Below are positions 35,838 to 62,965 of a stretch of 64,000 nucleotides of DNA, in pieces. Each line of letters opens with the position of its first letter. Position 1 is the first letter of the stretch. Position numbers and translations under genes: made by a program. The notes below the pieces were generated by a model. It ran no database searches. It was not told the DNA's origin and was given only the letters and a program-made list of their open reading frames with translations. Location of the stretch: positions 1,664,001-1,728,000 of the forward strand of contig OZ241993.1 in assembly GCA_965204575.1 (NCBI GenBank), written 5' to 3'. Source of the stretch: an uncultured candidatus Porisulfidus sp. (GTDB taxonomy: Bacteria > Pseudomonadota > Gammaproteobacteria > Poriferisulfidales > Poriferisulfidaceae).

Positions 35838-37430
35838 TCAGTTCAAAACCGATCCATAATCCTGGTAGACCTTTATATGCTCTTTCGCTATCAACTCCGG
35901 GCTGTACTCTTTCGCCCTCTCAATCCCCTTCTCTGACAGACTTCGCCTCAACCCTTCTGACCGATATAGACGAAGCAATTGCTCTGCCAATGCCCCCGCA
36001 TCTCCAGGCGGAACCAAAATTCCGCACCCTTCAGCAATGATTTCCGGGATCCCATCCACCCGGCTCGCCACGATTGGCACGCCCGCGCGCATTACATCCA
36101 GAAGCGTGGACCCCAACGGCTCGATCAGAGAAGGAAATGCGAAAAGATCAAAAGCGGCAATCCATGTGATGGGATCTTCAACCCAACCTGCAAAGTGCAC
36201 ATTGGATAAACTTCCGGCCTGCTGATGGAATTCTTCCTCCAAACGGCCACTCCCTAGCAAAACAAACTGGATATCTGGCACATCCTGCTGAAGGACTCGC
36301 GCCGCCTGAAGCAATATGGAGTGCCCCTTCTCCGGGCCATCCATCGCAGCAGCGTGCCCGACAATGCATTTACCCGAAAACTTCTCCCTGATCTTCCGCA
36401 CCTCCTCCGGATCAGGATACTCGGGATTCCAAGCATCGGGGATGCGGTCGATTGAAAGCTCCGGGAAACGATCCCGAAGACTGTTTTCCACCGCCTCAGT
36501 CAAAGCCACTACAGTTCGTGCATTCCGGTATACGGCAGAACTGTAGACATTGGAGCGCACAGGCCTTATCAACCGGCGTGTAATCAGATATTGCTTGCCA
36601 AACAGGCTGGCAGCATACGCCGCCTGCGCCGCATGCGCTTCATGCGCGTGCAGTAAAGATGCGCCTCGACAAGCGAATACCGCCGACAACCGGTTTCTGA
36701 CCCGGCAAACCTCCAAATCTGGGCTGCTTTGGAAGCGATTCGCCAAAGGACCGTGGCGCAGCACAACGACACGCTGCTTGGGCATGTTTTCGACCGCAAG
36801 TGCCTTGACTAGGATCTCAGTCTGACGCTCACCCCCTCGCAGTTTTGGGTTGCGGGCCAGATTGATATGGCAAACCAAAACATCCCCTTGGAGCCTCTCC
36901 CGATTCCACAATTTGGCATGGTACTGCGGAGATTGCGTCGCAAGCCGACGAATCAGCCAGAAAGGACCAATCAGTGTGCAGTATACCCTTGACGCATACC
37001 AACTGCCTCGGAGCTTCCAGAAAGTGCTCCAGATTGCTTTAATCTCCCATGACAAATCAAGGATCAAATCAGAAGAAACCTTTATCTCTACAGAATCTCC
37101 GTTTTTTAATTGAAATTTCTCCCTAAGCCGATAGGGAGAGAGAACCTCGACAATGTGCAGAGGATGTCCTTTTGCCCTTGTGAGCAGGCAACGGCTCCCG
37201 TTGATTTCTGCAGCCCAGTAATAGGCACGATGCCCTCCGGGAAATGCAACCTTCTCTGGATCAAATCGAATGGGCTTCTCAAGTGCAACGTTCAACGAGC
37301 CCGGGGCTTGGAGTTCCCCGAAAAAGTCTGAAATTGGCGATTCGCCGACTTTTGATCGAGAAGCAGTGCCGCGTCCGCTAATTACACGACCGTACATTAT
37401 TGCCTGTTTGGGCGTAGGACTTGGATTCAC
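35838..37430 (-). CDS. Fusion of an N-terminal CTP-dependent riboflavin-kinase-like domain and a GT4 glycosyltransferase
   Basis: GRVISGRG..PGSLNV..EVLSPYRLR..LKNGDSV at the N-terminus; RGGERQ, EKG, FPS..EPLG..D.M.AGVP.VAS.V.GIPE at the C-terminus. Confidence 0.78.
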   Translation of the reverse strand: MNPSPTPKQAIMYGRVISGRGTASRSKVGESPISDFFGELQAPGSLNVALEKPIRFDPEKVAFPGGHRAYYWAAEINGSRCLLTRAKGHPLHIVEVLSPYRLREKFQLKNGDSVEIKVSSDLILDLSWEIKAIWSTFWKLRGSWYASRVYCTLIGPFWLIRRLATQSPQYHAKLWNRERLQGDVLVCHINLARNPKLRGGERQTEILVKALAVENMPKQRVVVLRHGPLANRFQSSPDLEVCRVRNRLSAVFACRGASLLHAHEAHAAQAAYAASLFGKQYLITRRLIRPVRSNVYSSAVYRNARTVVALTEAVENSLRDRFPELSIDRIPDAWNPEYPDPEEVRKIREKFSGKCIVGHAAAMDGPEKGHSILLQAARVLQQDVPDIQFVLLGSGRLEEEFHQQAGSLSNVHFAGWVEDPITWIAAFDLFAFPSLIEPLGSTLLDVMRAGVPIVASRVDGIPEIIAEGCGILVPPGDAGALAEQLLRLYRSEGLRRSLSEKGIERAKEYSPELIAKEHIKVYQDYGSVLN

Positions 37431-37479: not shown

Positions 37480-39576
37480 CTACCAATGCATCTCTATGTA
37501 CTTGTGCGTTTCTTCAGAGTCAAGACAGCGAGAGGTATTTCCTGCACGAATATAGAACATTTTCTCTTTGCCGGATTCTTTTACAAATACCGGTTCAGGA
37601 GATCGTTCAACATCAATGATACAGACCGATTTGTCCTCAACATCTTCAAAGCGTATGCGGTAGCATTGCACAATAGCAACACCTATACTTTCGGAGATCA
37701 AATCAACTAGAAGGCGTTCGAAACGATCCCGCGATTGATTCACAAGCGCAAGATCTCTATCCAATCCCAAAACGCTTCCATCATCTTCCACCCCTATTAC
37801 CAAAGTGCCACCTTGCGAATTCAAGAATGCGGCGATTGTTTTTATAACAGACAACCGCAAAGCCTTATTCTGCTCATTTTTCACAATATCCCATTGGAGC
37901 GTACTCTTAAATTCGAGGACATAGCTCTCGCCATGCTGGACGATGTCTGTGATCGGTCTGAAAAAGGTTGGGTCATGGTCACTAATCAAACTATCCATGA
38001 ACTCATTGAGTTTTCGAGCTATGGTTTTCCGGCGAATTGCCAAAAAGTCCTTATAGTTTTCAACTGTCCATAGGCTAGGGTCCATGGGAACAAACTGTGC
38101 AGACAATGCGCCCGGGTAGTTCTCTTCGATCTTTGGGAGATATTCTTCAGGCAATTTGTTTTTTATTGATGCGGGTTCGGCAAGAAACGCCCGGTTTGCG
38201 ATTTCATTTACTGCTTGGCGCTGAATCCGATTCTCGGGGGACCAACCATTCTTGTAGAGGCGAGACTGCGGAAATATATGGATGTCATAAAACCCATCGT
38301 CTCTCGTTTGCCCCAGAGGAAGCCCATTGAACCAATCAACGGCCTGATGGGCTTTCGCTAAAATGTACGCCGCTGTGTAAAGCGGATTTTGAGAGCCTCG
38401 ACCCTCGAAATCCAAAGCCTTGACTTCAATGCGTCCACGTTGCTCAATGATATTCCCGCGAAGAGCCTCCCAAGGTTCAGTTTCCCTTACCACCAACTGA
38501 ACATCTGCTTCTAGTCGCTGGTCAGTCTGCGCAGTGTACCGGGACCACATGAGTGCGGCATACAACCAGTGGGAAGCATGGCGAATCGATTTTTCATTGG
38601 GAAACTGGCCATTATTCATTGAGAGGTAGACAATGAGGGGAATAAGCGCATTGCTCGTACTGAGATCGTAAGTAGAATGTATAAACATCTTCAGCGGGAG
38701 AATGGTCAGCAGATAATCCAATATCTTGGACAACTTGTCCCATCCATACTTCAATTCCTCGCGTGGACGCGAGTGAATCAATTCAAACAATGCACGATTT
38801 GTAACAGTTGTGGTTAACGCGCGCGTCATGAAAGTCAGTCCAAAATCAAATCCTTGATCGTTACAACTTTCCATCTTGGCTTTCAATTCACGTCTCGCCG
38901 CTGGCCATTTCCCAGTCATATGGGTCAGGGCAAGCTCAGCATCCGTCAGATGAGTTCCTTGCCTGTTCACTCTGTCGAAGATATCAATCGCTTCGTCCAA
39001 ATTGGCACTAGATGGCACCATTAATTCTGGAAGGTTGACGTCCTTAATCCTGCGAATTGAGTTGAGATTGTCCATCAGTAGTTGTGCCAATTCCATCGGG
39101 TCTTGCCCATCTTCGGCTTTTTCTTGGGCTATCTGGATGGGGCTAATTTCATTACTGTCTTCAAAGCAATCAGTCACTTGTTGCCAATAAGAATCGTCTT
39201 TCATTCGGGATGGCTGATAATATTGGAAGTCCAAGTTCCTTATATTTACGTAAAGATTGCGTGGATCATTTTCAATCTCATTTTCGGTGTAGTAGCACGG
39301 GATTTCGCCAATAATCAGCATGTGCAATGTCGTCAGACGTTGCTGACCATCAAGTAGAACTTGCACAGTGCCTATCTTTTCTGGCAGTGCCTTAATATTC
39401 TTAAGTTCAGGTGGGTTCTCCGTTTTCCATAACAACAAAACCCCAACAGGATACTCACGGGACAGTGAAATCATCAATTGTTTCGCTTGTTCCAAACTCC
39501 ATACATACTCACGCTGGAATTCTGGAAGCACAAGGTCATTCCTTTGAATGCAATCAAGTAGTTCACTAATTTTCAT
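37480..39576 (-). CDS. GmrSD-type (DUF262) restriction protein fused to a C-terminal Schlafen/AlbA_2 domain
   Basis: LPEFQREYVW, LLDGQQRLTT, IFDRVN; HIFP..NEIAN; ESYVLEFKST..AFLNSQGGTLVIGVEDDG. Confidence 0.85.
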   Translation of the reverse strand: MKISELLDCIQRNDLVLPEFQREYVWSLEQAKQLMISLSREYPVGVLLLWKTENPPELKNIKALPEKIGTVQVLLDGQQRLTTLHMLIIGEIPCYYTENEIENDPRNLYVNIRNLDFQYYQPSRMKDDSYWQQVTDCFEDSNEISPIQIAQEKAEDGQDPMELAQLLMDNLNSIRRIKDVNLPELMVPSSANLDEAIDIFDRVNRQGTHLTDAELALTHMTGKWPAARRELKAKMESCNDQGFDFGLTFMTRALTTTVTNRALFELIHSRPREELKYGWDKLSKILDYLLTILPLKMFIHSTYDLSTSNALIPLIVYLSMNNGQFPNEKSIRHASHWLYAALMWSRYTAQTDQRLEADVQLVVRETEPWEALRGNIIEQRGRIEVKALDFEGRGSQNPLYTAAYILAKAHQAVDWFNGLPLGQTRDDGFYDIHIFPQSRLYKNGWSPENRIQRQAVNEIANRAFLAEPASIKNKLPEEYLPKIEENYPGALSAQFVPMDPSLWTVENYKDFLAIRRKTIARKLNEFMDSLISDHDPTFFRPITDIVQHGESYVLEFKSTLQWDIVKNEQNKALRLSVIKTIAAFLNSQGGTLVIGVEDDGSVLGLDRDLALVNQSRDRFERLLVDLISESIGVAIVQCYRIRFEDVEDKSVCIIDVERSPEPVFVKESGKEKMFYIRAGNTSRCLDSEETHKYIEMHW

Positions 39577-39852
39577 CTGGCTTGATTTTTTTATTGGACA
39601 CATTTGCTGTGAGCAGTTTCGATTATACCTAGAGGCCCAGGCTGCATAAATGTGTGTGAGGATGAAGTCTGCTCATTGCCCACAGAGGAATGGTATTTGC
39701 CCAATATGGCTCTTCTACATGTTGGGCAGATATGAACCGATTGGCACACTCTGAAGCCTCTAAAGAGACTGCGGGGTTCCACGTGTGCATAGTATTCCCT
39801 ATGCCGCCATCGGGTCACACCACTCTGTATATACTCGTAAGCACCAGTAGCA

Positions 39853-42318
39853 TTACTCCAAGGATTTGCTTTTGGACAATGTTGCGTAAATTGCCAGTCC
39901 CACCGAACTCCTGTGCTTCGTACTTCCGGAGGCAATGAGAAGGCGCCGCACACTGTTAGTGGTCAATCCACCAAAAGGAATTTTACAGGTGAATCTTGCT
40001 CTGAATTCATCTCCAGTTGAGCCACGCCTCTTCCTTGTATATGCGGCGCGAAAAGTCTCCCACTGATGAATAGACGCTTTACATTCTTTTTGCATTCGAC
40101 AGCACAACTGTTCCACCATGAGCGGACTATCATGACCTAGTTCATCCTCTATGGCGACCTTCATTTCTCTAAAAACGCGTCTAACCCCTTTCAATTTTCC
40201 TGCGCGGCGCAATTCAAACACGAAGCGAGGGTCCGTATCCATCAAGAAATTGACGCTCTCTACCGTTTGAGCCAATTTGCTCTTGCCTTCCAGTCTCGCG
40301 CCGTTAGAATCCAAAATCGCTCTCTCAATTTCCTTCCAGCGATGCTTGTTATCTGTAACGACAACCACTCCGGTCAATTGCGCTAAAAGTAGTCCTAATT
40401 CAAAATTGGGAGTAAGATTCAAGCGTATTAGTTGACCCTTCCCGAAAAGAATATCCTCTTGCAACAATGCTAGCGGGTCTCTGAGACGTTTATTTTTTAA
40501 ATGCTGGAGAATTTCAATCAATTCAGCTTCTGACATAGAGGGAAATTGCTGCTGGATTATTGCCCGTCGCTCCGATTCCGACATTGAAAATAGGATGTGT
40601 TCAGCATCCGCAAAGATTAATTCGCGCATATCTCCAACATTCGATTCGTCTAGAGTTTTACCGCGCAAGCGCTTTTTAGCCATATCCAGCACATCCTCCC
40701 GAAGGTGGGCATTGAAAACACTTGGGTCTGGAATCAAATTGATATAGCCAGCTTCAATAAATGGCATTAATTGCAATATCAAAAAAACGTTCTTAAGTGT
40801 CTCTTGCTTGTATTTATGCGGAATGTTGACTGGGCTGCATTCGGGCCTGATTCCAGCAGGATTTACAAATGGATTGATAATAATTACTTCATCAAAGTAG
40901 AGCGTCAGACTAGTCGCAAACTTCGTAGTCATTCTAGGATCGACAATTCCCGAATAAATTGCGCGAGAGATTTTTTTGTTAGGTGCCGGAAGCAAACTAT
41001 AAATATCAGTATCTATTGGCCATAAGAATCCAAATGCTTCGTGGATCTTCTTTACTTGTTCGTTCGACAAATTTTCTCGAATATCGCGCCAAGTTTTACC
41101 TTGCGACAATCCAAGAGTATTGCAAACAATATTCGCGAAAGCTATGTTTCGTTCACGAACACTAAGTTCAGTGAATGATGGTCTTTCATTTATAGGTATG
41201 TCCCGGCAACACTCTTTGTACCTCCTGCCACTGCCACACGGACATGGCTTATTGGGCCAAACCCAACCAGATGGAGGCTTTTTCTTTAAATGGTCATGGT
41301 TGCTGGTGGTACGGCCAAATGCATCTTGGTAATGAACCGAACCATCTTTGTACTCCACAAATATTTCGCCCCCAAAACGGTGCAATTCTTCTTCGGGAGG
41401 TCTAAGCACCAAGTTAAGATCAGACCAAGGCGCACTGACTCGGTTTTCTGGAAATAGCCAGCCTTTCTCATGTGCTGCAACATATCTTTTCGCTCTAGAT
41501 TTGATAATAAAATTAATCTGCTCAACCTCAGAATCCGTTAGGCTACGACATCGGATAAAGGCATCTGTTCTAGCAAGGCTCGGCGCGAAGTATCGGGGGT
41601 TAGTTCGTTTTTCTAAGGGGTCTTCGGTATCTGGATTACTTGCGTATTCAAGGCTAGTCAGGATGAGGCAATGGTTAAATCCTAACGGAAATATAGTTTG
41701 CGTTCCTTTTAGAGAGACATGCGGGTCATAAGGGTCACGACAATAATTGGAATCCGGTGGGCAAGCACTGTTATATGTTGTTACTGGATGATCCGAAATA
41801 ATAAATTTGACCGTGGAATTTTCCGCAGACACGATTTCCCTAACTCCTTCTGCCCAAATGGTACAGTTGAGGTTCCGCAAGTGTTGCATCTCTTCCATTA
41901 ACGCTACTTGATCCAGATTGATATATTCTTCCCTCAACCAAGCAAGTCCTTTAGGCGTCCGGATTTTTTGTGCATCAATATATTGGAAAAAATTTAAAAA
42001 GTGCTTGTGGCACTGTTCGAAATCTCCAGAAATAAATGCGCGAACCGCCAAACATCCAAATTGATCAATTGTTCCAAATAAGTGCCTTTCGATATCATCG
42101 TTAATCTCTGAACCAAAGAAAGTTGTATATAAATCGCGCAACATAAAGCCTTTCGAAGGCGGCAGGGCTTCAAGTTCATTTATCCAAATTGTTCGGCCAT
42201 CAGGCAACTTCCGACTAGCAGGGGTTTTATCTGCAAACCACAGCACGCCCGTGCCGCCACAAGAAAACCCTTTTTGGTACCATTTCGGCACGTAATGATT
42301 ATTCCTTGACTTTGACAT
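39853..42318 (-). CDS. DUF4238-domain protein with central SEC-C zinc motif
   Basis: NHYVPKWYQKGF, FIISDHPV, PCPCGSGRRYKECC. Confidence 0.8.
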   Translation of the reverse strand: MSKSRNNHYVPKWYQKGFSCGGTGVLWFADKTPASRKLPDGRTIWINELEALPPSKGFMLRDLYTTFFGSEINDDIERHLFGTIDQFGCLAVRAFISGDFEQCHKHFLNFFQYIDAQKIRTPKGLAWLREEYINLDQVALMEEMQHLRNLNCTIWAEGVREIVSAENSTVKFIISDHPVTTYNSACPPDSNYCRDPYDPHVSLKGTQTIFPLGFNHCLILTSLEYASNPDTEDPLEKRTNPRYFAPSLARTDAFIRCRSLTDSEVEQINFIIKSRAKRYVAAHEKGWLFPENRVSAPWSDLNLVLRPPEEELHRFGGEIFVEYKDGSVHYQDAFGRTTSNHDHLKKKPPSGWVWPNKPCPCGSGRRYKECCRDIPINERPSFTELSVRERNIAFANIVCNTLGLSQGKTWRDIRENLSNEQVKKIHEAFGFLWPIDTDIYSLLPAPNKKISRAIYSGIVDPRMTTKFATSLTLYFDEVIIINPFVNPAGIRPECSPVNIPHKYKQETLKNVFLILQLMPFIEAGYINLIPDPSVFNAHLREDVLDMAKKRLRGKTLDESNVGDMRELIFADAEHILFSMSESERRAIIQQQFPSMSEAELIEILQHLKNKRLRDPLALLQEDILFGKGQLIRLNLTPNFELGLLLAQLTGVVVVTDNKHRWKEIERAILDSNGARLEGKSKLAQTVESVNFLMDTDPRFVFELRRAGKLKGVRRVFREMKVAIEDELGHDSPLMVEQLCCRMQKECKASIHQWETFRAAYTRKRRGSTGDEFRARFTCKIPFGGLTTNSVRRLLIASGSTKHRSSVGLAIYATLSKSKSLE

Positions 42319-42394
42319 TTCTGATGAATTCCATAGCACCCAAAGCGCGATCTTTGACTGGTTGCTCCGTGATTGCAGGATTTGGAAAATTCCC

Positions 42395-42904
42395 TTACAG
42401 AAGAGTTTTAAAGCTAGTTACTTTTGATCTGGAGCGATGTCTTTGTGCCCATTCAATGAGGAGTTGATCCGCATCTTCCAAGGTCATTTGGCCGTTGCGG
42501 ATAAGGCCAACAATTAAGTCTTCTGTCTGGCAAAACCGCAAGCCCTTGCTTCGCCGCTCCCCCTCTGTACGTGCCCTCCTATCCTGAACCCCCGCCACCA
42601 AGTTTCGAGTAATCGCTACTGCAAGAACGGCGCATTCACCAGCATCCAATCGACCGCTGGCGTGCAGATTGGCAAAAAGTTCCACCTCTTTAACATCTGT
42701 TACCCGCTCGAAATCAAAAATGCCTGAACTGATCGCTTTCTGTAGGGCTTTTTTCTGTTCCGGCTGTGTTATTTCTACGAGCACTTGATCAAGAAGTAGG
42801 ACCCGAAATCCAGCATGTCCCAACAGGCCAACACGTCCAACCTTCAAAAAATTCAAAAGTATCGACGTGTCGATTACTACTGTGGGCGGATTCTGCTGTG
42901 GCAC
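42395..42904 (-). CDS. PIN-domain protein (DUF3368-like)
   Basis: VVIDTSILLNF, V..E, LDAGE, QDRRAR; probable GTG start at 42904 after GGAGGAG. Confidence 0.82.
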   Translation of the reverse strand: MPQQNPPTVVIDTSILLNFLKVGRVGLLGHAGFRVLLLDQVLVEITQPEQKKALQKAISSGIFDFERVTDVKEVELFANLHASGRLDAGECAVLAVAITRNLVAGVQDRRARTEGERRSKGLRFCQTEDLIVGLIRNGQMTLEDADQLLIEWAQRHRSRSKVTSFKTLL

Positions 42905-42923
42905 TGCTGACTTAACTCCTCCA

Positions 42924-44168
42924 TCACAACCCCACAGCTTCCGCCAAATCAAGCGTCATTTCATCATCGATGTGAAGCAATCGGCCTATTTCTAGAAGTC
43001 GATTCTGCGAAATTTCCCCACGCCGCCAAGCTTCCAAGGCAAGCGGCAGGATTTGCCATTTCAAATCATGATCTTCATGGTTTTCTGCCGGGGCTTGACT
43101 TTCTTCTCCCTCCAGCATCTCGTTGGTTTGAAGCGCGTCTAAGTAGCATCTGGCCATGTCCGTTTGATCCAGCAGGATTTTCGCTTCATGCGCACTTATG
43201 ATGTTTAGGCCTCGCAATCTCCAAACTGCGGCCGAATAGCTTACTCCGAAATTCCGGCCGAATAAGGCAACATCTGGGTAGGTAATATGTTGCGACCGTG
43301 GCGGCACACGCAGTTCCCCTCGAACAACCTGCTCTTCCACACTATCCATAACCGTCTCTTCGCGACGTGAACTACGGCCCTTGCCAAGTTCGTATATGAA
43401 ATCCCTCGCACCGGCTTCCGGAACCAGAAATGCTGCCGCAAAGGCATTTGCTCGTTGCTCTCTCACATGCTTGGCGTTATGTCGGCTAGTAACGGTAGCC
43501 TGATGAGCCCTATCCATCAGAGCATGTCCATATTCATGAGCATAGGAGAACCGCTGACGCACTGGCGATTGCCCTCCATTGACTAGAATTCCCATACCAA
43601 ACTCTAGGCTCTTCAAGAAAAGCCCAGATACCTCGTCGGATAATTGCAAGGCAGCAGTCCAAATTCCTTGGGACCCAATAAGCTTGGGAATTGAGAATAT
43701 TGGTGCCAAGCCAAGCCCGAGACGCCGCCGTTCCTGGTTGGCCACATCTTGACCCTGTGCAATCGCGAGCCCCGTTGACCGAGGTTCTGGAAGCTCATAA
43801 CGAGGCAACACGCCCATGGAAACTCGGCCAAGTAAATTTACTAGGGAGGCACCCGCAGAAAACAGGCGAATACAGTGTCTGGCCTGTTTCTCCACTGCTT
43901 CATTTTCTAAACTCGGTTCAGCTCGAAATAGAGCAAAGACAGGATCTTCGAGCGGCGCATCTGGATTCACAAACCACTCAACAGAGCGACCATACAATTC
44001 AGCAAGGCGCATTAGTTCTAGCGTGGAAACTTGGCGTTTCCCTGACTCCATCAAACTAATTGCTGAACTCTGGAGTCCGACTCCAGCCGCCACTGCGCTT
44101 TGGGTAAGCCCTCGACTCTCACGGGCGACCCGTAGCCGCTCTCCAAATTGTTTAGTGCTGATTGGCAT
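42924..44168 (-). CDS. XRE HTH plus ImmA/IrrE-family zinc metallopeptidase
   Basis: FGERLRVARESRGLTQ HTH; RFSYAHEYGH (HExxH); EQRANAFAAAFL; SD GGAGG before MPIST. Confidence 0.92.
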   Translation of the reverse strand: MPISTKQFGERLRVARESRGLTQSAVAAGVGLQSSAISLMESGKRQVSTLELMRLAELYGRSVEWFVNPDAPLEDPVFALFRAEPSLENEAVEKQARHCIRLFSAGASLVNLLGRVSMGVLPRYELPEPRSTGLAIAQGQDVANQERRRLGLGLAPIFSIPKLIGSQGIWTAALQLSDEVSGLFLKSLEFGMGILVNGGQSPVRQRFSYAHEYGHALMDRAHQATVTSRHNAKHVREQRANAFAAAFLVPEAGARDFIYELGKGRSSRREETVMDSVEEQVVRGELRVPPRSQHITYPDVALFGRNFGVSYSAAVWRLRGLNIISAHEAKILLDQTDMARCYLDALQTNEMLEGEESQAPAENHEDHDLKWQILPLALEAWRRGEISQNRLLEIGRLLHIDDEMTLDLAEAVGL

Positions 44169-44253
44169 GTCCCTACCTCCTCTGAGAAGATTTTCACATC
44201 CCATAGATCAATTTTTCCATACAATGCATGAAATTACAAGTTTTTGGATAAAA

Positions 44254-44282
44254 TTGACATTTTAGATTAGATAATCTAAAAT
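44254..44282 (+). promoter_or_regulatory. Near-consensus sigma70 promoter overlapped by a perfect palindromic operator
   Basis: TTGACA 44254-44259, 17-bp spacer, TAAAAT 44277-44282; palindrome ATTTTAGATTA-GA-TAATCTAAAAT 44259-44282. Confidence 0.75.
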
Positions 44283-44370
44283 TTTTAGCAGCCAATTTCA
44301 AAAATGAAAATGCAACCAATACTCTGGAGAAAAAAAGAAAATGGCAAAAAAAAATGGAATGGATGGATTA

Positions 44371-44601
44371 TTCGGGAGGGCGGCACGCCACCCCAACCTG
44401 CGCATGTGCTAAACACAAATTTAAGTGCAAAAGGAGGTGGTGAATATGAGAAGAATTAAATGTAGGTGTTTACGGACACGTCGGAGATCCGGACGAAAAG
44501 TTGTTCGTGTACGGTCACATGTTCGGTCTAGGCCGGGCTCAATTTCTAGGCGCTGCCGGTAAGTGGCAGATTTGATTAACCGTGGCGTGCCGCTCCCCGA
44601 A
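44371..44601 (+). repeat. Long-range ~20-bp inverted repeat enclosing a small ORF (candidate structured RNA)
   Basis: TTCGGGAGGGCGGCACGCCAC 44371-44391 pairs with GTGGCGTGCCGCTCCCCGAA 44582-44601 (12 perfect bp, one G-U, one bulge). Confidence 0.75.
44446..44562 (+). CDS. 38-aa Arg-rich small protein (absent from the ORF track)
   Basis: AAGGAGGTG SD then ATG; MRRIKCRCLRTRRRSGRKVVRVRSHVRSRPGSISRRCR. Confidence 0.65.
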   Translation: MRRIKCRCLRTRRRSGRKVVRVRSHVRSRPGSISRRCR

Positions 44602-44643
44602 ACCGTTTCAATCTCAAACATCTGAAGAAAATTACATCATCCC

Positions 44644-45879
44644 TCAGGTCACTGCCCTTTGCATGGACAACACCACCCGCGTAAACCCTCCGGACACCTC
44701 GAACGAAGGTGCCGGCAGACGGAATTCTTCGACCTGCGCGAGCGCCTTGTCAATTCCGCTGCCGCGGTCCTCGCTGAAACCGAAACGGCGCATCAGGGAA
44801 ACCAGCGCCTCGTTGCGCGACCGCGGAGGCATGTCGACCAGACGGAGTTTATCGAGCAAGGGTTCGCCGGGGTTCGTAATCTCGACCCGGCTGTCGAAAA
44901 TCTCCACCATCGGGCCTGCCCCCGTCACGGTGAAATCCTGATGGATGAGCGCATTCGTGACCAATTCACGTACCGCGAGCGGGGGATACGCGAAGACCGT
45001 CCTGCGCAAGGCTCCCTTGATTACCTCGCGACTCGGCAACAGGTCGTCAATGTGGCCCGTGACCCCGCGAAGCCCCGCCGCATATCCCATGCCGTGGGAC
45101 CGCTCGACCGCGCTTCCGGTTCGGTCGTCCCCCGAATACTGAATCACCCGCATGGACTTCCGCCCGAGCCCGGGGAACTCATTGAGATCCTTGGCAAGGA
45201 GGGTCGCTCCAAGGTTGAGGATGTCCCAGCCCCCCGCATCGCACTGGCGGATCAGGCCGTCTCCGGCCAAGGCATCCATGATGCCGCTGCGGCTTTCCGG
45301 CAGCGGAAGGTCTAACAGGTCGAAATAGACCGGATAGTCGAGCAGGCGGAACACCTCGTCCGGAGCCATGTTCTCCAGACACGTCATGGCCTCGAACCGG
45401 GTCCGGTCGAAGGCGCGCCACAATGCCCTCTCTTTTTCCGGGACATTCCTCAGAGGCTTTGTCGTGCTTCCCACCCGCACGTAGTCCATTCCGTTGAAAC
45501 GCACTGGGTGGCGGGCGGCGCAGGCGATTTCCAAAACGACCAACGGCTTTCCATCAAAATCGATGGGATGGAAGCTGAAGTCGATTTTCGGCTCCAGCAA
45601 TCGGAGCAGCCAAGTCTCCAAAGGTTCATTGCCCTTCTTCGCGTGCTGCGGGGAGAACTTCGTGCCGACCGGCACATGCGTATCATCCTCCACGCCCCAG
45701 ACCACATACCCGTATGGCCGGTCATTCAATGTCGCTGCATTGGCCAGCGCTGAGATGTATTCCCCGATCTCCCTCGGATCGGCCTTGTCGCGCTTGAATT
45801 CCAACCACTCCGTCTCGGGCTGGCGGCACAGCGTTCGTGCAAGGTCGGCGAGATAGGCTGCTGTGCGTTGAGGGCTCAT
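44644..45879 (-). CDS. Schlafen/AlbA_2 plus HATPase_c_4 protein, probably C-terminally truncated
   Basis: ETEWLEFK, ISALAN, VWGVED; AVRELVTNALIHQD, EITNPG, SRN, EDRGSG; ends without the usual C-terminal wHTH. Confidence 0.8.
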   Translation of the reverse strand: MSPQRTAAYLADLARTLCRQPETEWLEFKRDKADPREIGEYISALANAATLNDRPYGYVVWGVEDDTHVPVGTKFSPQHAKKGNEPLETWLLRLLEPKIDFSFHPIDFDGKPLVVLEIACAARHPVRFNGMDYVRVGSTTKPLRNVPEKERALWRAFDRTRFEAMTCLENMAPDEVFRLLDYPVYFDLLDLPLPESRSGIMDALAGDGLIRQCDAGGWDILNLGATLLAKDLNEFPGLGRKSMRVIQYSGDDRTGSAVERSHGMGYAAGLRGVTGHIDDLLPSREVIKGALRRTVFAYPPLAVRELVTNALIHQDFTVTGAGPMVEIFDSRVEITNPGEPLLDKLRLVDMPPRSRNEALVSLMRRFGFSEDRGSGIDKALAQVEEFRLPAPSFEVSGGFTRVVLSMQRAVT

Positions 45880-46083
45880 GTCGCGATTTCCCCTGAACAT
45901 AAAGAGAATCAGGGTATCCATTGTATAAGCACGACCCGCACGTTTGGCAAACACACAAGCGGAAGCCGCCCTGCACGAGGAGGCAGGATTCCGGTTTCGA
46001 ACACGCACCTGGAATCGGGATGAAGAATCTCCTGCGCGGTTTCAATCAAACAACCATCAAGCAAATATTTTTCTATAAAATCA

Positions 46084-46101
46084 TTATATTTCAATCTATT
46101 A
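46084..46101. repeat. 18-bp direct repeat, copy 1 (IHF-site-like)
   Basis: TTATATTTCAATCTATTA, identical to 49132-49149. Confidence 0.7.
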
Positions 46102-46325
46102 TATAATATTCCTTTATTTTTTATCAGAAATAATGGATTTTCTATCAAACAAACTTTAGGGTTCCGGGTTATGGGCAATATGAGAACCCCAACCTTCTGG
46201 AACCGCGAGAGCCCCTCACCCTGTTTTCCACCCTCGTCTCCCATACTCATACTGTGGCGGAAGCCCTGAACCCTGTAAACTAATTGGAACCGCATCGCCT
46301 GATTTTCCGTACTGTAGTTTTCGAG

Positions 46326-48785
46326 ATGGGCAACAAAACACCTCCTCAATCACCTGACCCCCCATCAGACCAGAGCGACGTTCCGGCCATCAGGAAACGT
46401 CTTGCCGAACTCTCTGCCGAGCAGCGCGAACTGGAAGCACAACTCGCCGACCTGACCCGCCGACCATCACGCAAGCATCGTCCTGTCGCTCCCGCCAGAC
46501 AAGTGACCTGTGCGTCTCCCCCGGCCGAAAAAATCACCCTGTTCCGCTCCCTGTTCCGGGGACGGGAAGATGTCTTCCCCAAGTTCTGGATCAACACGAA
46601 AAGCGGGAAGTCAGGCTACTCGCCAGCCTGCGCCAACGAGTGGAAGCCCGGGCTGTGCCGCAAGCCAGCCATCAAATGCGGGGAATGCCCCAACAGCGCC
46701 TTCGCCCCGGTGACCGACGCGACCATCGAGCAGCACCTGCGCGGAAGCAACTCGAAAGACCAGGATTTCATGATGGGCATCTATCCCATGCTGACCGACG
46801 AGACCTGCTGGCTTCTGGTCGCCGACTTCGACGGAGACGCATGGCGCCGCGATGCTTTCGCCTTTCTCGAAACCTGCCAAATGCGGAATATCCCCGCTTC
46901 CCTTGAACGCTCCCGTTCCGGAAGCGGCGGCCATGTTTGGATCTTCTTTTCGGAACCCGTCCCGGCCACCCTGGCCCGCCGCTTCGGAACGCGACTTCTG
47001 GCCGAAACCATGGAACGCAGGCCGGAGGTCGGGTTCGGCTCCTACGACCGCTTCTTCCCCAGTCAGGACACCCTGCCGAATGGAGGATTTGGGAACCTGA
47101 TCGCCCTGCCCCTGCAGAAGCGGCCTAGGCAGGACGGCCACAGCCTGTTCGTGGACGAGAAATTCCAGCCTTATGCGGACCAGTGGGAATACCTGTCTTC
47201 GATACGGCGCCTGACCTTGCAAGAGATAGCTGCCCATCTGGAGGAAACCCAGCCATCGGAGTACCTGCCCGGCCTGCATCTGCCCACGAGCGAGGAAGAC
47301 GAAAAGGGTCCCTGGCTGATTCCTCCGTCCCGGGAAAAGCCCAAGATCCCTATCACTGGCCCTCTCCCGGAAACAATCGACATGGTGCTGGGGAATCAGG
47401 TGTACATTGACCGGAGCGGACTGCCCCCGGCTCTAGCGAACCGGCTCCTTCACCTGGCTGCATTCCAGAATCCAGAGTTCTACCAAGCCCAAGCCGTGCG
47501 CCGCTCCACTTTCGGCATCCCCCGAATCATAGGATGCGCAGAACTGCATTCGCGCCATATCGCCCTTCCCCGCGGCTGCCTTGAGCCGGCCGAATCGCTA
47601 CTGTCCTCGCTGGGCATTCGGGTCGCGTTCAGCGATAAACGCAACCCCGGACGCCCCATATCGGTTTCTTTCCTTGGCGAACTGACGCCGGAACAGCAGG
47701 AAGCAAAAGACGCCCTGCTGCCACATGAAACCGGAGTCTTGGCAGCAACCACCGCTTTCGGCAAAACCGTCGTCGCCTCCTCCATCATCGCTGCCCGAAA
47801 AACGAACACCCTGATTCTTGTTCACCGCCGCCAACTTCTCGACCAGTGGGTCGCGCGACTCCAGACCTTCCTGAACATCTCCGATGGCGAGGTCGGAAAA
47901 ATCGGCGGCGGCAAGCGAAATCCGGGCAGCATCGTGGATGTCGCGATCATCCAAAGCCTGGTACGGAAAGGAGAGGTCGATGATCTCGTCTCGGACTACG
48001 GCCAACTGATCGTCGACGAATGCCACCATCTGGCTGCCGTGAGTTTCGAGTCAGTCGCGCGCCGTTGCAGGGCCCGCTATGTTCTCGGACTGTCCGCCAC
48101 GGTCACACGGAAAGATGGCCACCATCCCATCATCTTTATGCAGTGCGGCCCGGTACGTTATCGCGCGAACGCCCGGAAACAGGCTGCCCGGCTGCCGTTC
48201 AGCCATCGGGTGGATGTCCGGCACACCGGGTTTGTCCCTCCTTTGGAAATGGCTGACGAACCACCACCCATCCAACAGGTCTACGCCACCCTGGCCCAAA
48301 GCGAAAAGCGAAACGACATGATCTTCGATGATATTCTGTCGGCCCTTGAAGCCAAGCGGTCGCCTCTAGTCCTGACCGAGCGGAGGGACCATGCGCTGTA
48401 TCTGGCCACACGACTTGCGCCCTTCGCCCGTAACGTCATTGTCCTGCACGGTGGCATGGGGGTGAAAGCCAGACGGACTACGATGCAGAAGCTGGAAAAC
48501 ATCGGAGACCGGGAAGAGCGATTGCTGATTGCCACAGGTCGCTACATCGGCGAAGGTTTCGATGACGCTCGACTGGATACGCTGTTCCTGACTATGCCGG
48601 TTTCCTGGCGTGGAACACTCGCGCAATACGCCGGTCGCCTGCATCGAATCCATCCGGGTAAACGCGAAGTCGTCATTTACGATTATGTCGATGACGCCAT
48701 GCCCGTGCTGGCCCGCATGAGCGACAGGCGGGCAAAAGGCTACGCCAGTTTGGGCTACTCGGTCAATAATCGTCAGGCATCATAG
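46326..48785 (+). CDS. AEP (TOTE-type) primase domain fused to an SF2 DExH helicase
   Basis: LFRGREDV, Cys cluster, ADFD, RSRSGSGGHVW, GNLIALPLQ; ATTAFGKT, DECH, LSAT, GEGFD, QYAGRLHR. Confidence 0.87.
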   Translation: MGNKTPPQSPDPPSDQSDVPAIRKRLAELSAEQRELEAQLADLTRRPSRKHRPVAPARQVTCASPPAEKITLFRSLFRGREDVFPKFWINTKSGKSGYSPACANEWKPGLCRKPAIKCGECPNSAFAPVTDATIEQHLRGSNSKDQDFMMGIYPMLTDETCWLLVADFDGDAWRRDAFAFLETCQMRNIPASLERSRSGSGGHVWIFFSEPVPATLARRFGTRLLAETMERRPEVGFGSYDRFFPSQDTLPNGGFGNLIALPLQKRPRQDGHSLFVDEKFQPYADQWEYLSSIRRLTLQEIAAHLEETQPSEYLPGLHLPTSEEDEKGPWLIPPSREKPKIPITGPLPETIDMVLGNQVYIDRSGLPPALANRLLHLAAFQNPEFYQAQAVRRSTFGIPRIIGCAELHSRHIALPRGCLEPAESLLSSLGIRVAFSDKRNPGRPISVSFLGELTPEQQEAKDALLPHETGVLAATTAFGKTVVASSIIAARKTNTLILVHRRQLLDQWVARLQTFLNISDGEVGKIGGGKRNPGSIVDVAIIQSLVRKGEVDDLVSDYGQLIVDECHHLAAVSFESVARRCRARYVLGLSATVTRKDGHHPIIFMQCGPVRYRANARKQAARLPFSHRVDVRHTGFVPPLEMADEPPPIQQVYATLAQSEKRNDMIFDDILSALEAKRSPLVLTERRDHALYLATRLAPFARNVIVLHGGMGVKARRTTMQKLENIGDREERLLIATGRYIGEGFDDARLDTLFLTMPVSWRGTLAQYAGRLHRIHPGKREVVIYDYVDDAMPVLARMSDRRAKGYASLGYSVNNRQAS

Positions 48786-49131
48786 GGATCGGAAATCCCG
48801 CATCAGCAAGGTTGCACACAGTACTCTCTCCGCATCATCACGAAATGCCTTCAAGCGACGCAGCCAGTTTTCCTTGCGGTGACGCCATCCTATTCCTCCC
48901 GCATCTGCAAGTAGATTACGCCGTGCAAGAACAAGTTTATTATGTTGTGGTCATGCAAGTGCATCGCGCGTGCTTGTCGGAGAATGCGAGCAAGCGCATA
49001 TCCTCAGGGCAACCCTAAAGACGTGCATGCGGTTCATCGTGTGCGGTCCGGGGCGAAAGAGCAGCAGTGCTTCCACGTCGGTTCTCTTGACGACACGGCG
49101 GCAATGCTCCCTGCTGATGCCAAAAAATACC

Positions 49132-49149
49132 TTATATTTCAATCTATTA
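49132..49149. repeat. 18-bp direct repeat, copy 2
   Basis: TTATATTTCAATCTATTA. Confidence 0.7.
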
Positions 49150-49444
49150 GAAAAAATGAAAGTTAAGGGGGGTGAAAAACCAAAGTTTGCGTCTTCAGCT
49201 ATTTGAAATTAAATACATTTCCATGTTCTTTGGATGCCAGATCCAAAGAGGCCAAGAAATCTCACGAAATCTTCCAGAAAGCCAGATATTTATAGCCCGC
49301 CCGGCTACCCGCCATATGAAACTCCCGACTTGAAATCCGCGACCGGGAAACCACGGAGTCTCCACATCACAAATATCCCGAAGCCCCCCCAAGAGCCACC
49401 GCTCCATCCTTGCTAAAATGCGGCATCCAGCCACTGCGCCCCCC

Positions 49445-49864
49445 ATGGAGTTCCTGAAACCCCGCACCCTCAAGGCCCGCCAGAAAACCCTCGCCCTGCT
49501 CCTGCCCTGCCTCACACCCGTTCAGGATGACCTCGGAAATGTCCCGGTTTCGATGCAGCAGGACCCCCGCGTCAACGGTGCCTTGATCGGTTTGACTGAA
49601 CGCGTCTGCGCCTACTTCAAAGTCACCCGGCCAATCCACATCCAGCGTGTAATCGCTACTGTTTTCGAGGAAATCTACCGCCGCGAAGCAACCGCCGTCC
49701 TCACGCAGTGCGACGAACTTCTGGAAGACCCCCAGTCCGAACTGTCCCGAGCGCGCATCAGCATCGGGGAGCTGCAGCCGGAAACTCCAGATCCAAACTG
49801 GGTGAGCGAACTGAACGACTACATCCAGAAAAACTACGAACGCCCCGACATCCTGGTGCTCTGA
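49445..49864 (+). CDS. Hypothetical protein
   Basis: Host-like codon usage; apparent operon with the next ORF. Confidence 0.6.
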   Translation: MEFLKPRTLKARQKTLALLLPCLTPVQDDLGNVPVSMQQDPRVNGALIGLTERVCAYFKVTRPIHIQRVIATVFEEIYRREATAVLTQCDELLEDPQSELSRARISIGELQPETPDPNWVSELNDYIQKNYERPDILVL

Positions 49865-49875
49865 ACTTCTGATTC

Positions 49876-51009
49876 ATGGACATCGCCCTGCACCGCTCAG
49901 CCTCCGACATCGAGGAAGACCTGGAATATTACTTCAGCGAACAGCGTGACAAGCACAACCAGATTCGTCCCTCGGATGACATCCGGAGTTTCACCACGGA
50001 TTCCCCGAATTTCACGGCAAATCCTAGTGAAGGCGAAATCGGCAACGTGTTTTATCCCTTTGCGCCATTCTCGCTGGATCGTATCTTCATCGGCATCAGC
50101 TTTCCCCTGTTCTCCAACAATTGGGGCGCCGCCTTCCTGCGCCACCTGCTGGGCCTGATTAAACCCAAAGGCGGCGTTATCCTCCCGGTCTACCCAGAAG
50201 TCCAGGCACGCGACCAAGGTCTGTGGTGTCGCAGTTCCCTAGAAAACATCTTTCGCAGCCGTTCGCGTTTCATCGGCATCAGCAACATCTGGGCGGAAAA
50301 CGACGGCGTCATGTCGATGCGGGTCGGCCGTCGGTGGCCACCTGTCATTCCAAGCACGGCCCGGTGGCTGTTCGAACAGGCACCACGGCGTGCGATGGCC
50401 TTAGGGCTACAAGGCAATACCGAGGCAGTCCGAGAGTTTTGGCAGTCCGAAGTCCAACGCTTCTGGCGTCTCGGCCGCTATCACGCCGTCATTGAACAGA
50501 TCATCCGCAATCAATACGGCCCGCGCCGGCCTGTGCGCTTGGCTGTCTCCGGCGAAGATGCAGGCATTCTCGCGCTTGAATGCCTCTACAGCCCTTATAC
50601 CCGTGTCACCCGGGCTGTTGCCTCCGGCACCAAGGAAGATATTGATGACCTGCAAGCCCTGGACCAAGCCTGTTCAACCCAAGCGCATGGTCCTCTAGAA
50701 CGTCCTGGCTCAACAGATTTCGGAAATTCGCTTGATGTGTTGTGCCTCGCCAACCCTCATGCTCTAAACCCAGACTCGGTCGTGTACCTACTTGCCAAAA
50801 ACGGTACGCTCATCCTGCCCCCCAAATGCGCCGAATTGACCCCGGGCCTTGGCTCGAGGTTCAACGAGCCAGAATATTATTCGGACATCGTCGCGCAGCG
50901 CCTCCACAGCAGCGTCCCGATCTACCATTACTCCGAGCGGATCGAGGAGGAAATCGCCCGGCAAATCGAATCACATCAAGACGCCTTCATGGTTCTGAGC
51001 AAGGCTTAG
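49876..51009 (+). CDS. Hypothetical protein, possibly with degenerate methyltransferase-like folds
   Basis: 377-aa ORF; LIKPKGGVIL and LLAKNGTLIL resemble the LKPGG motif. Confidence 0.55.
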   Translation: MDIALHRSASDIEEDLEYYFSEQRDKHNQIRPSDDIRSFTTDSPNFTANPSEGEIGNVFYPFAPFSLDRIFIGISFPLFSNNWGAAFLRHLLGLIKPKGGVILPVYPEVQARDQGLWCRSSLENIFRSRSRFIGISNIWAENDGVMSMRVGRRWPPVIPSTARWLFEQAPRRAMALGLQGNTEAVREFWQSEVQRFWRLGRYHAVIEQIIRNQYGPRRPVRLAVSGEDAGILALECLYSPYTRVTRAVASGTKEDIDDLQALDQACSTQAHGPLERPGSTDFGNSLDVLCLANPHALNPDSVVYLLAKNGTLILPPKCAELTPGLGSRFNEPEYYSDIVAQRLHSSVPIYHYSERIEEEIARQIESHQDAFMVLSKA

Positions 51010-61717: not shown

Positions 61718-62897
61718 TTTCTCTATTTACTCTCACAATGGCATCAAGCCATTCCATATCTGCTTTTACTTTAGATGCTATTTCTGATAAGTGGATACGT
61801 TCACTACTGTTACTCCTTCTGAAGAAGTGATCGAAAAGATCTCGATCTGTATCGGTAGCACTTCCTCGCGGGTTTTTAACAATTCGGCGAATTTCTTTTT
61901 CGACTGCATTTTCTTTTCCATTAATTACAGAAAGATTAGCCCATCGTTCAAAAACCTCATGTAGGACAACATGATCATCACCACTGTGGTAGTGAATTGG
62001 AGTGATTCCGCGAGATTTCCAGTCTTCCAATGCGACAGGGTCTCGTGTGCGTGCACCAAAAAAAGTGAATCGTTCCTTGAGGTCATCAAAGCGATGTCCA
62101 TCTGCAGCAACGGCATTGAGAAGGTATCTCATCGGCGGATCGTTTGCACTATAGCCAACCAACACTAAGCTAAACAAGCGGGCCGCATCGTAGATAAAAT
62201 CGGGAACAATACGTCGCCTTAGATAAAATTCACCAAAATCTTGATCCGAAAGGACAAGTTCAGAATGACGCTTGGGGTCCGTAGCCAGCGCCCCATGGAT
62301 GTGAAGTACTCCTGAAAAATCTATTCGTTTTGTTGGTCGTGGGATTTCCCCTAATGAATAAGTCTCGGGTGAAAGACGAAGGCGCCCACCTGCAGCCTCA
62401 AGCAAGCGATCAAAGTTGGTCGTAACAATCGTTACTGCATTGCCACGAACAGCAAGGCGCATAAGATTTCTATGAATATCCGAGTATTTCTTGCCTTTTG
62501 CACGCAGAATATCATTGACTTTCTGCCTTACTTGGCTATCTCCTTTTGCCCAATCGTCTAAACGGCGTTCAAGCATACCAAGTACAACATCGTAATCACC
62601 GGCAATATACCTTTTCACTTCGGCTGTTTGAAATTGATTAAGACTCGAACAATCCACTCCCCATTTATTGCATATTCCACGTGGCAAATCGACAAGAATC
62701 TGATGCACTGGTGAGTCAAGCTCCTGATACACACTCAACACAAGGTCTCGAAAATCAGGCAGACCTGCTGATTTTGAAATACCTGCACCACAAATAAACA
62801 GTACTTCTCCACGTCCGTGTGCTAGCAATAGACGCTCAGGAATCGGAGGGAGCCCTTCACCAAGGACAATTTCACGATCTTCCTTAATTTGAGTCAT
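61689..62897 (-). CDS. SIR2-family NADase domain protein (Dsr1-like N-terminus)
   Basis: PPIPERLLLAH..GEVLFICGAGIS..GLP.F, VTTNFD, HIHG, LVGYSANDP. Confidence 0.88.
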   Translation of the reverse strand: MTQIKEDREIVLGEGLPPIPERLLLAHGRGEVLFICGAGISKSAGLPDFRDLVLSVYQELDSPVHQILVDLPRGICNKWGVDCSSLNQFQTAEVKRYIAGDYDVVLGMLERRLDDWAKGDSQVRQKVNDILRAKGKKYSDIHRNLMRLAVRGNAVTIVTTNFDRLLEAAGGRLRLSPETYSLGEIPRPTKRIDFSGVLHIHGALATDPKRHSELVLSDQDFGEFYLRRRIVPDFIYDAARLFSLVLVGYSANDPPMRYLLNAVAADGHRFDDLKERFTFFGARTRDPVALEDWKSRGITPIHYHSGDDHVVLHEVFERWANLSVINGKENAVEKEIRRIVKNPRGSATDTDRDLFDHFFRRSNSSERIHLSEIASKVKADMEWLDAIVRVNRENAGDTPSDF

Positions 62898-62965
62898 GTG
62901 TAAATAAGTTTCAATACGCCTGTGTCTACCCTCATTGATGAACAGTTCGAAATCCTGCAATGACT

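Follow-up and report, generated by a model that had tools for sequence, protein, structure and literature searches.

The segment studied here, positions 42395-44601 of a 64,000-nt stretch of contig OZ241993.1 from an uncultured candidatus Porisulfidus sp. (the whole stretch is called the window below), contains a gene for a peptidase with an XRE-type helix-turn-helix (HTH), a gene for a PIN-fold protein, a palindromic operator and, beyond it, a GC-rich foldback around an open reading frame (ORF) of 38 codons. We consider it probable that the two genes (42395-44168) make up a self-contained toxin-antitoxin (TA) or defence module of a RosmerTA-like kind, with a conserved autoregulatory operator, and that the foldback and the ORF are bystanders. 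The analysis described here established the domains and the fold, as well as the conservation of the catalytic residues, of the gene pairing and of the operator.

An earlier note on this DNA had proposed that an RNA or a peptide from the foldback was a third component of the system. This did not hold up in the comparison of homologous operons. The micro-ORF and the stem were found next to none of the operons examined, and the ORF had no relative in two protein libraries; the palindrome with its operator, on the other hand, was shared.

The peptidase and PIN gene pair

42924-44168, minus strand: gene for an XRE-HTH and M78 (ImmA/IrrE) peptidase of 414 aa, the candidate antitoxin and repressor
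42395-42904, minus strand: gene for a PIN-fold protein of 169 aa with a GTG start, the candidate toxin, directly downstream of the peptidase gene

The most likely start codon of the peptidase gene is the ATG at 44168, which follows a GAGGAGG Shine-Dalgarno (SD) sequence and opens 414 codons. The product matched the Pfam models Peptidase_M78 (PF06114, 2.1e-14), HTH_31 (2.9e-11) and HTH_3 (6.8e-11). In an alignment of 18 sequences, H211, E212, G214 and H215 of the HExxH motif were invariant. Among the PADLOC models, RmrA gave a match at 1.3e-26, and capP (1.9e-13) and capH (7.7e-8) gave weaker ones. The protein has the Zn-peptidase (M78/ImmA) domain of a RosmerTA antitoxin and the N-terminal HTH that often accompanies it.

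For the PIN gene, the GTG at 42904 is the most probable start and would give a product of 169 aa. A longer frame of 185 aa, from 42952, shares sequence with the upstream gene; its use is improbable. No Pfam model reached its cut-off with this protein, PIN-like models included, and a profile search of the PDB sequences with the PIN alignment found no relative. The sole match in PADLOC was to PDC-S70 (E 5.2e-10). None of the RmrT models matched at E <= 0.01, which is weak evidence against membership of RosmerTA, because RmrT toxins are diverse.

The AlphaFold (AF2) model of the PIN protein, built with 24 sequences, had a mean predicted local distance difference test score (pLDDT) of 92.3. Its top neighbours in a Foldseek search of the PDB were the PIN/VapC chains 1y82, 4chg and 5h4h (E 3e-5 to 5e-4, template modelling (TM) score 0.5-0.65). 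Among the acidic and active-site positions, E44, G89 and E90 were invariant in the 24 sequences, and D12 and D108 nearly invariant. The label 'PIN nuclease' is therefore supported at the level of the fold and the active site. The description in the earlier note of an operon for an XRE-HExxH peptidase and a PIN protein was supported.

Scans with the peptidase protein gathered 72 related loci, 29 from genomes and 43 from metagenomes. A PIN homologue was detected by tblastn in 39 of them, almost always right after the peptidase gene, and in several phyla. The two genes are on the same strand with a gap of 19 nt between the peptidase stop and the PIN start, and their order is conserved. The host records were titled Binatia, Latescibacterota, Entotheonella, Alphaproteobacteria, Nitrosovibrio, Planctomycetota, Gemmatimonadales and others.

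Prediction of a complex between the peptidase and the PIN protein, with both alignments, gave a score of 0.75, compared with 0.01 for the best of three controls. The mark used for this score was reached by 58 of 80 solved complexes and by 2 of 110 mismatched pairs, counts that are rough since the alignments were self-made. The runs shared at least 95% of their contacts, and the pLDDT of the partner was at least 87. In the modelled interface, peptidase residues 46-53, 62-67 and 384-393 lay against residues 12-14, 43-44, 84-92 and 108-111 of the PIN protein, where the catalytic positions are. The HTH and the C-terminal helix of the peptidase are predicted by the model to cover the PIN active site. 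Part of the score may reflect a likeness to solved VapBC complexes; the antitoxin here is of a different kind. We read the pair as a toxin and an antitoxin, whose putative binding is supported by this model.

The operator, the two promoters and the cassette

44259-44282: perfect 11-2-11 palindrome, found in an inverted-repeat scan and containing the operator core
44267-44279: operator core TTAGATAATCTAA, a 6-1-6 palindrome of 13 nt, conserved in the family and recurring upstream of homologues
44254-44282, plus strand: divergent, near-consensus promoter-like site TTGACA-17-TAAAAT, 11/12, overlapping the palindrome
44273-44301, minus strand: promoter-like site TTGAAA-17-TAGATT, 9/12, directed toward the peptidase gene, with its -10 element within the operator
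44296-44369: A-rich tract of GC about 0.3 with three loose copies of AAAAAAAGAAAATGG, found in repeat and GC scans

The operator core was searched for in the related loci. With up to 3 mismatches and within 300 nt upstream of the homologue, it was present at 15 of 62 loci, compared with 0 of 62 control stretches inside the gene; this count is illustrative, because the set holds near-duplicate loci (L024/L025, L022/L032 and L053/L062) and the motif was defined on the same sequences. Distant relatives had TGTACGATTATCGTACA or variants of 53% identity, with the GAT-T-ATC centre unchanged. The core GAT-N-ATC, inside a longer palindrome, tracked the protein family from 31% to 90% identity.

At the Latescibacterota, Entotheonella and Versatilivoraceae loci, the operator was located in the spacer and the -10 element of TTGACA-17-TAAATT/TAAACT promoters aimed at the peptidase gene. 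From the sequences, the simplest reading of TTAGAT-N-ATCTAA is autoregulation of the peptidase-PIN operon. The suggestion in the earlier note that the palindrome is an operator of the XRE repressor appears credible, as the 13-nt core recurs upstream of the homologues.

Both the divergent promoter and the perfect palindrome on it had also been described in that note, and both were present. The promoter is among only 16 sigma-70-like sites of at least 11/12 in the genome (1.82 Mb, both strands). The genome has a single exact copy of the 13-mer operator core. When it was scanned for perfect palindromes with arms of at least 11 nt and spacers of 0-4 nt, 29 entries were obtained, some of which were one site at different spacers. 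Repression of the divergent promoter by the XRE domain is a reasonable inference, because the promoter shares the operator. The A-rich tract may belong to a plus-strand transcript as its leader, or it may be AT-rich DNA that precedes the peptidase promoter.

Outside the window, two long and perfect palindromes rich in AT were also noted, at C1:1139049-1139103 (20-1-20) and C1:1061076-1061109 (17-0-17). The former adjoins TTGACT-16-TATAAT, and both may be operators of other regulators.

The -35 hexamer of the divergent promoter (GTCAAT on the other strand) aligned with the same hexamer in L048 and L020, two loci with 67% protein identity, and was altered in L019. L020 has TTGACA-17-TAATAT at the divergent position, facing a basic ORF of 110 aa with no Pfam match and a weak GIY-YIG ORF; an integrase and an IS630-type transposase lie further out. 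In L048 the divergent side faces a Prim-Pol/HTH gene. A divergent site of at least 10/12 within 300 nt was found in 12 of 63 rows, and overlapped the operator region only in the window and L020. We infer that the cassette, of which the outward promoter would be an ancestral part, came from a mobile-element switch of the ImmR/ImmA type. This promoter is probably a relic of the mobile-element past of the cassette.

The divergent neighbour itself differs by locus: a vapBC-like pair, a PhyH-like gene, a Prim-Pol gene, a YjzC-like gene, or nothing. At five loci (L029, L031, L049, L050 and L051), beside homologues of 53% identity, a small conserved protein of about 65-88 aa is encoded divergently, about 250-320 nt upstream of the peptidase gene. 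It has the pattern YKPGE.AP.S(A/G)QYG..GPRGG.TGQERT...GEPLPPTP.PG, and we take it to resemble the YjzC-like proteins. A GC-rich 12-6-12 hairpin lies between its gene and the peptidase gene.

Comparison of the window with 60 kb of a genome of the same genus (G009; loci L092/L011) revealed homology only at 42926-44279 (89% DNA identity) and in a glycosyltransferase gene at 35987-37385 (73%). The former ended at 44279, inside the palindrome, and a vapBC-like pair follows upstream in G009. The breakpoints of the apparent exchange are at the stop of the peptidase gene and inside the palindrome. By these alignments, the regulator gene and its operator look to have been exchanged together, and recently, between two species at a defence hotspot that both have. 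The homologues of highest identity (59-67%) came from records titled as Binatia, Latescibacterota, Entotheonella and Versatilivoraceae metagenome-assembled genomes. These hosts, together with a roughly 95%-identical island in a sponge metagenome (below), suggest that the cassette is exchanged among bacteria of a common habitat.

The neighbouring genes form a defence island. At 37480-42339 and 44644-48785 are genes for a protein with GmrSD_N and AlbA_2 domains (PADLOC HEC-05, 2e-45), for an 828-aa protein with DUF4238 and SEC-C, for a protein with AlbA_2 and HATPase_c_4 and for an 833-aa protein with an AEP-TOTE primase and a helicase (Pfam 1.1e-97); a literature search on TOTE with a primase found no paper. 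The AlbA_2/HATPase_c_4 protein (454 aa) is encoded convergently to the foldback. Among 60 relatives its homologues were at most 54% identical, so the region downstream of this gene was not comparable. Further away on the minus strand, a SIR2_2 protein (1.6e-16; 61689-62969) adjoins a 916-aa protein without a Pfam match (58967-61717), possibly as a defence pair.

The GC-rich foldback and the 38-codon frame

44372-44601, plus strand: GC-rich foldback with a closing helix of 20 pairs (arms 44372-44393 with 44580-44601) around about 186 nt
44446-44562, plus strand: Arg-rich ORF of 38 codons, with AAGGAGGTG 8 nt before the ATG
44553-44569, plus strand: weak terminator-like hairpin over the stop codon of the ORF; 2 such sites compared with 1.8 expected, not significant

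The earlier note had correctly described GC-rich inverted repeats of about 20 nt that enclose the ORF and its ribosome-binding site in AT-rich DNA. The GC content was 0.525 at 44370-44605, compared with 0.26 at 44205-44369 and 0.32 at 44606-44643. The arms at 44375-44391 and 44582-44598 are 17 nt long and 88% complementary, and RNAfold extended the helix to 20 pairs. It ranked 36-37 among 975 seeded long-range inverted repeats of this 60%-GC genome. In the ensemble of a transcript from 44289, the arms were unpaired with a probability below 0.1, and the SD with a probability of 0.34. Among 60 loci with at least 500 nt of upstream DNA, only the inverted repeats of L077, which are like repetitive extragenic palindromic (REP) sequences, surpassed the -42.8 kcal/mol of the window.

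No known RNA was recognized in this region: the Rfam 15 covariance models gave 0 matches over 40000-50000 at E <= 1, and ARAGORN found no tRNA or tmRNA in the window. The foldback DNA had neither a second copy nor a similar arm elsewhere in the genome. Only short matches at chance level were found in 60 relatives, 400 genomes of the phylum, plasmids and 5 genomes with homologous loci. Matches to phages were likewise at chance level, including one of 40 nt at E 6e-3, and a scan of viral contigs for the arm-gap-arm pattern found nothing. When the intergenic region was compared with the 72 loci by blastn, it matched only L019, and only over the 73 nt adjoining the gene.

The segment was recovered from another source. 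In a sponge metagenome from another study (run X4), contigs of low depth covered 39000-44618 with about 92-99% identity. One of these, 445 nt long, covers 44174-44618 with 21 substitutions (4.7%), roughly 95% identity. Its indels, a loss of 3 nt at 44346 and a gain of 1 nt after 44601, were outside the ORF and in neither arm. This showed inheritance and not constraint, because 4.7% resembles the divergence of the neighbouring genes (1.2-8.3% per contig). As the evidence from X4 consists of contigs, it does not reveal transcript ends, strand or inversion.

The 38-codon ORF was present together with the sequence that the earlier note had called an ideal SD. The sequence was in its place, but the 9-mer occurs at chance frequency in the genome (11 occurrences compared with about 14 calculated for random sequence). 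Only 405 of the 1210 sites in the genome that combine GGAGG with a start open at least 100 codons.

Of the 38 residues of the encoded peptide, 13 are Arg; it is strongly cationic and of low complexity, and it lacks a hydrophobic stretch. A phmmer search of 1.84 billion representatives gave 0 matches to it, and an exact look-up of the peptide and four other small frames of the region in a collection of 15 billion proteins found none. The 45-aa frame from an upstream GTG had no relative among 5.8 billion word-indexed proteins. In tblastn against the loci and the genome, only Arg-rich low-complexity noise was obtained. The ESM Atlas returned a score of 0.77 with low recognition (1532), so that the peptide was not recognized as protein-like. 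The ORF is probably not a conserved gene, and we doubt that it is a gene at all.

Origin of the foldback as the remnant of a pseudogene was also considered. For the 66-aa antisense frame, neither 300 genomes of the phylum (best E of any genome 5.3e-4) nor the protein database yielded a meaningful match, and this origin was rejected. A promoter-like site on the minus strand, TTGACA-18-AAGAAT at 44724-44753 (10/12), was noted within the 3'-terminal part of the AlbA_2/HATPase_c_4 gene; an antisense transcript from it would cross the foldback. Only 111 sites in the genome reach at least 10/12.

Weighing of the readings and comparison with known systems

In the mechanism that we favour, the XRE-peptidase would bind TTAGAT-N-ATCTAA at its own promoter and repress its own operon. 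The same protein would cover the PIN active site with its HTH and conserved C-terminal helix, as predicted by the complex model. By analogy to ImmA/IrrE/CapP, a stress or phage signal would activate the peptidase, the repressor and antitoxin function would be destroyed, and the nuclease would be freed. Cleavage, toxicity and defence are what we infer for the pair. The divergent promoter would share the operator as part of the ancestral two-way control region of the cassette. In this genome it would face the lineage-specific A-rich tract and the 230-nt foldback. We take this segment for a bystander that is left over from a junction or gives rise to a structured transcript incidentally.

Several observations weigh against this interpretation. 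On the side of the gene pair, 33 of the 72 loci had no PIN match. Many of these are short contigs, but L019, L022, L023 and L027 had sufficient room and yet no PIN gene. In another genome (G010, locus L012), mnmE and yidC flank a solitary XRE-M78 homologue of 43% identity that has no PIN partner. In G009, the 90%-identical peptidase protein is followed by a DUF262 gene, not a PIN gene. The PIN partner thus appears to be exchangeable. The precomputed Pfam label PF11848 (DUF3368, COG2405), carried by 52 of 55 PIN homologues, was not reproduced by hmmscan: at E <= 10, neither the PIN protein nor the 4 homologues tested gave a match to PF11848, while the same 4 homologues gave PIN_6 at 0.026-0.17.

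On the side of the foldback, the plus-strand RNA had a predicted folding energy of -92.2 kcal/mol, with z = -4.33 relative to shuffled controls (z = -3.16 for the minus strand). The closing helix is the sole long-range inverted repeat within the surrounding 15.5 kb. In the predicted fold, the ends of the segment come together and the SD is partly covered, an arrangement also seen in regulated leader RNAs. The foldback is at least stably inherited, because the X4 contig retains it. Regulated divergent transcription at 44254-44282 is likely, because a promoter of 11/12 overlaps an operator of which the genome has no second exact copy. From its absence in relatives, the foldback is not a feature of the family, but it does not follow that it is inert here.

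These observations may be read in favour of a third part, either a structured RNA, as a PIN substrate, a decoy or an antitoxin-like RNA, or the cationic 38-aa peptide, which would be driven by the divergent promoter, held off by the XRE-peptidase, and made on cleavage of the repressor. The overlap of a near-consensus promoter with the operator, the strong folding, in which the closing helix is robust and the SD partly hidden, and the retention of the element without an indel in the ORF in the roughly 95%-identical strain of the other study are consistent with such a circuit. So is the placement of CapH/CapP-type regulators on the strand opposite to their targets, in passages of a preprint (10.1101/2022.04.27.489752). 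However, the element was absent from all the related loci examined, even the one of 89% DNA identity. The peptide, without a homologue in the protein sets searched, of low complexity and not recognized as protein-like, was never called as a gene, its SD motif is at chance frequency, and the model of the two-protein complex would already account for neutralization. We regard this circuit as improbable. The chance that a lineage-specific third part is functional seems slim. A specific form of it, in which an operator-gated RNA was added to the RosmerTA-like module, so that a transcript of roughly 310 nt, clamped at its ends by the 20-pair helix and with its SD partly hidden, would appear upon repressor cleavage and act as a structured substrate or decoy of the freed PIN nuclease or as the mRNA of a nucleic-acid-binding, protamine-like Arg/Cys peptide, is very doubtful.

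The peptidase protein may instead be mainly a fused damage-sensing regulator of the CapH-CapP type for the neighbouring defence genes, with the PIN protein as a co-regulated effector or a passenger. The capP and capH matches, the position of the module within a defence island (GmrSD-like, DUF4238, AlbA_2 and AEP-helicase genes) and the replacement of the PIN gene by the DUF262 gene in G009 would fit this. CapH-CapP fusions, one of them near a vapC-like gene, are also reported in parts of the same preprint. RmrA, on the other hand, scored far better than capP and capH, no conserved operon was found at the divergent position, and the operator occurs only once in the genome. In addition, the predicted complex sets the peptidase protein over the PIN active site. 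Taken together, this role as mainly a regulator seems unlikely to us. The foldback may otherwise be a boundary element against the convergent AlbA_2/HATPase_c_4 gene: a two-way terminator or insulator, an insertion like a miniature inverted-repeat transposable element (MITE), or an invertible segment. It lies 43 nt from the stop of this gene (44644), T-runs follow on the minus strand, its terminal inverted repeats of about 21 bp surround about 186 bp, and it is situated at a step in GC from 0.26-0.3 to 0.6. Against this, no canonical terminator was found on the minus strand, the plus-strand hairpin is at chance level, and no recombinase gene was present among the neighbours scanned. A MITE or foldback element is disfavoured: the segment has inverted repeats, but it occurs only once, its arms have no counterpart elsewhere in the genome, and the flanking sequence shows no target-site duplication. 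There is little probability for a boundary element of any of these kinds. The regulator and the boundary readings partly overlap with that of a two-gene module, which we prefer.

A third part, if true, would add an RNA or a micro-protein to a widespread class of peptidase-gated TA and defence systems, but the comparative evidence does not support it. What remains of value is a defined subfamily of XRE-M78 peptidases with PIN partners in sponge-symbiont and soil metagenomes, and a predicted mode of neutralization, in which the HTH and the C-terminal helix would lie over the PIN active site. The operator core that tracks the family is a direct handle for binding and reporter experiments. The locus is also an apparent example of a regulator gene and its operator exchanged together between two species at one chromosomal defence hotspot.

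Among known systems, the mRNAs of the type I toxins hok and AapA1 pair end to end and have their SD sequestered. The foldback resembles them in having a small ORF behind a strong promoter, with paired ends and a partly hidden SD in the predicted fold. Unlike theirs, the peptide here is cationic without a hydrophobic stretch, the 5' arm begins about 85 nt past the predicted start of the transcript, and no family was detected. A type I toxin-antitoxin system is not supported, as the peptide is not hydrophobic; the only lead to an antisense RNA was the 10/12 promoter-like site on the minus strand (44753-44724).

The peptidase gene has both domains of CapH/CapP and ImmR/ImmA and, like them, a palindromic operator in a control region that serves two directions, and two 67%-identical relatives face mobile-element genes (Prim-Pol in L048; integrase and IS630 in L020). 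It differs from them in that the domains are fused, a toxin-like gene follows, and the models match more weakly than RmrA. Parts of the preprint of Lau et al. (10.1101/2022.04.27.489752) describe CapH/CapP and also fusions of CapH with CapP, including one at a DISARM locus with a vapC-like gene next to it, and place regulators of this type on the opposite strand from the genes they control. Here, in contrast, no conserved operon is on the opposite strand, which carries the 38-codon orphan and then the convergent gene.

The gene pair is of a known kind, because pairs of HTH-DUF955 with PIN-like genes, and links between ImmA/RmrA and PIN, are in print. Passages of Matelska et al. (2017; PMC5499597) describe PIN-like proteins of COG2405/DUF3368, DUF4411 and others that are co-transcribed with HTH and DUF955/COG2856, and HTH-DUF955 fusions upstream of a COG2405 gene. 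The present pair resembles these in that the fused HTH-peptidase gene comes immediately before a small PIN-like gene whose acidic residues are conserved, and in the defence-island setting with shuffling of partners. It differs in that the PIN protein is below the cut-offs of the PIN-like Pfam models and the DUF3368 label was not reproduced.

In parts of Ernits et al. (2023; PMC10440598), the ImmA/RmrA (Rosmer) node is an antitoxin hub linked to PIN-like domains, and the partners of this antitoxin class are exchangeable. RosmerTA itself, in parts of the preprint of Millman et al. (2022; 10.1101/2022.05.11.491447), consists of the Zn-peptidase antitoxin RmrA and a variable toxin RmrT. The present partner is unlike RosmerTA in matching PDC-S70 instead of an RmrT model. 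The module is like RosmerTA in its RmrA match, in the HTH ahead of the peptidase and in the adjacent, variable, toxin-like partner; PIN-like partners are on record in published work.

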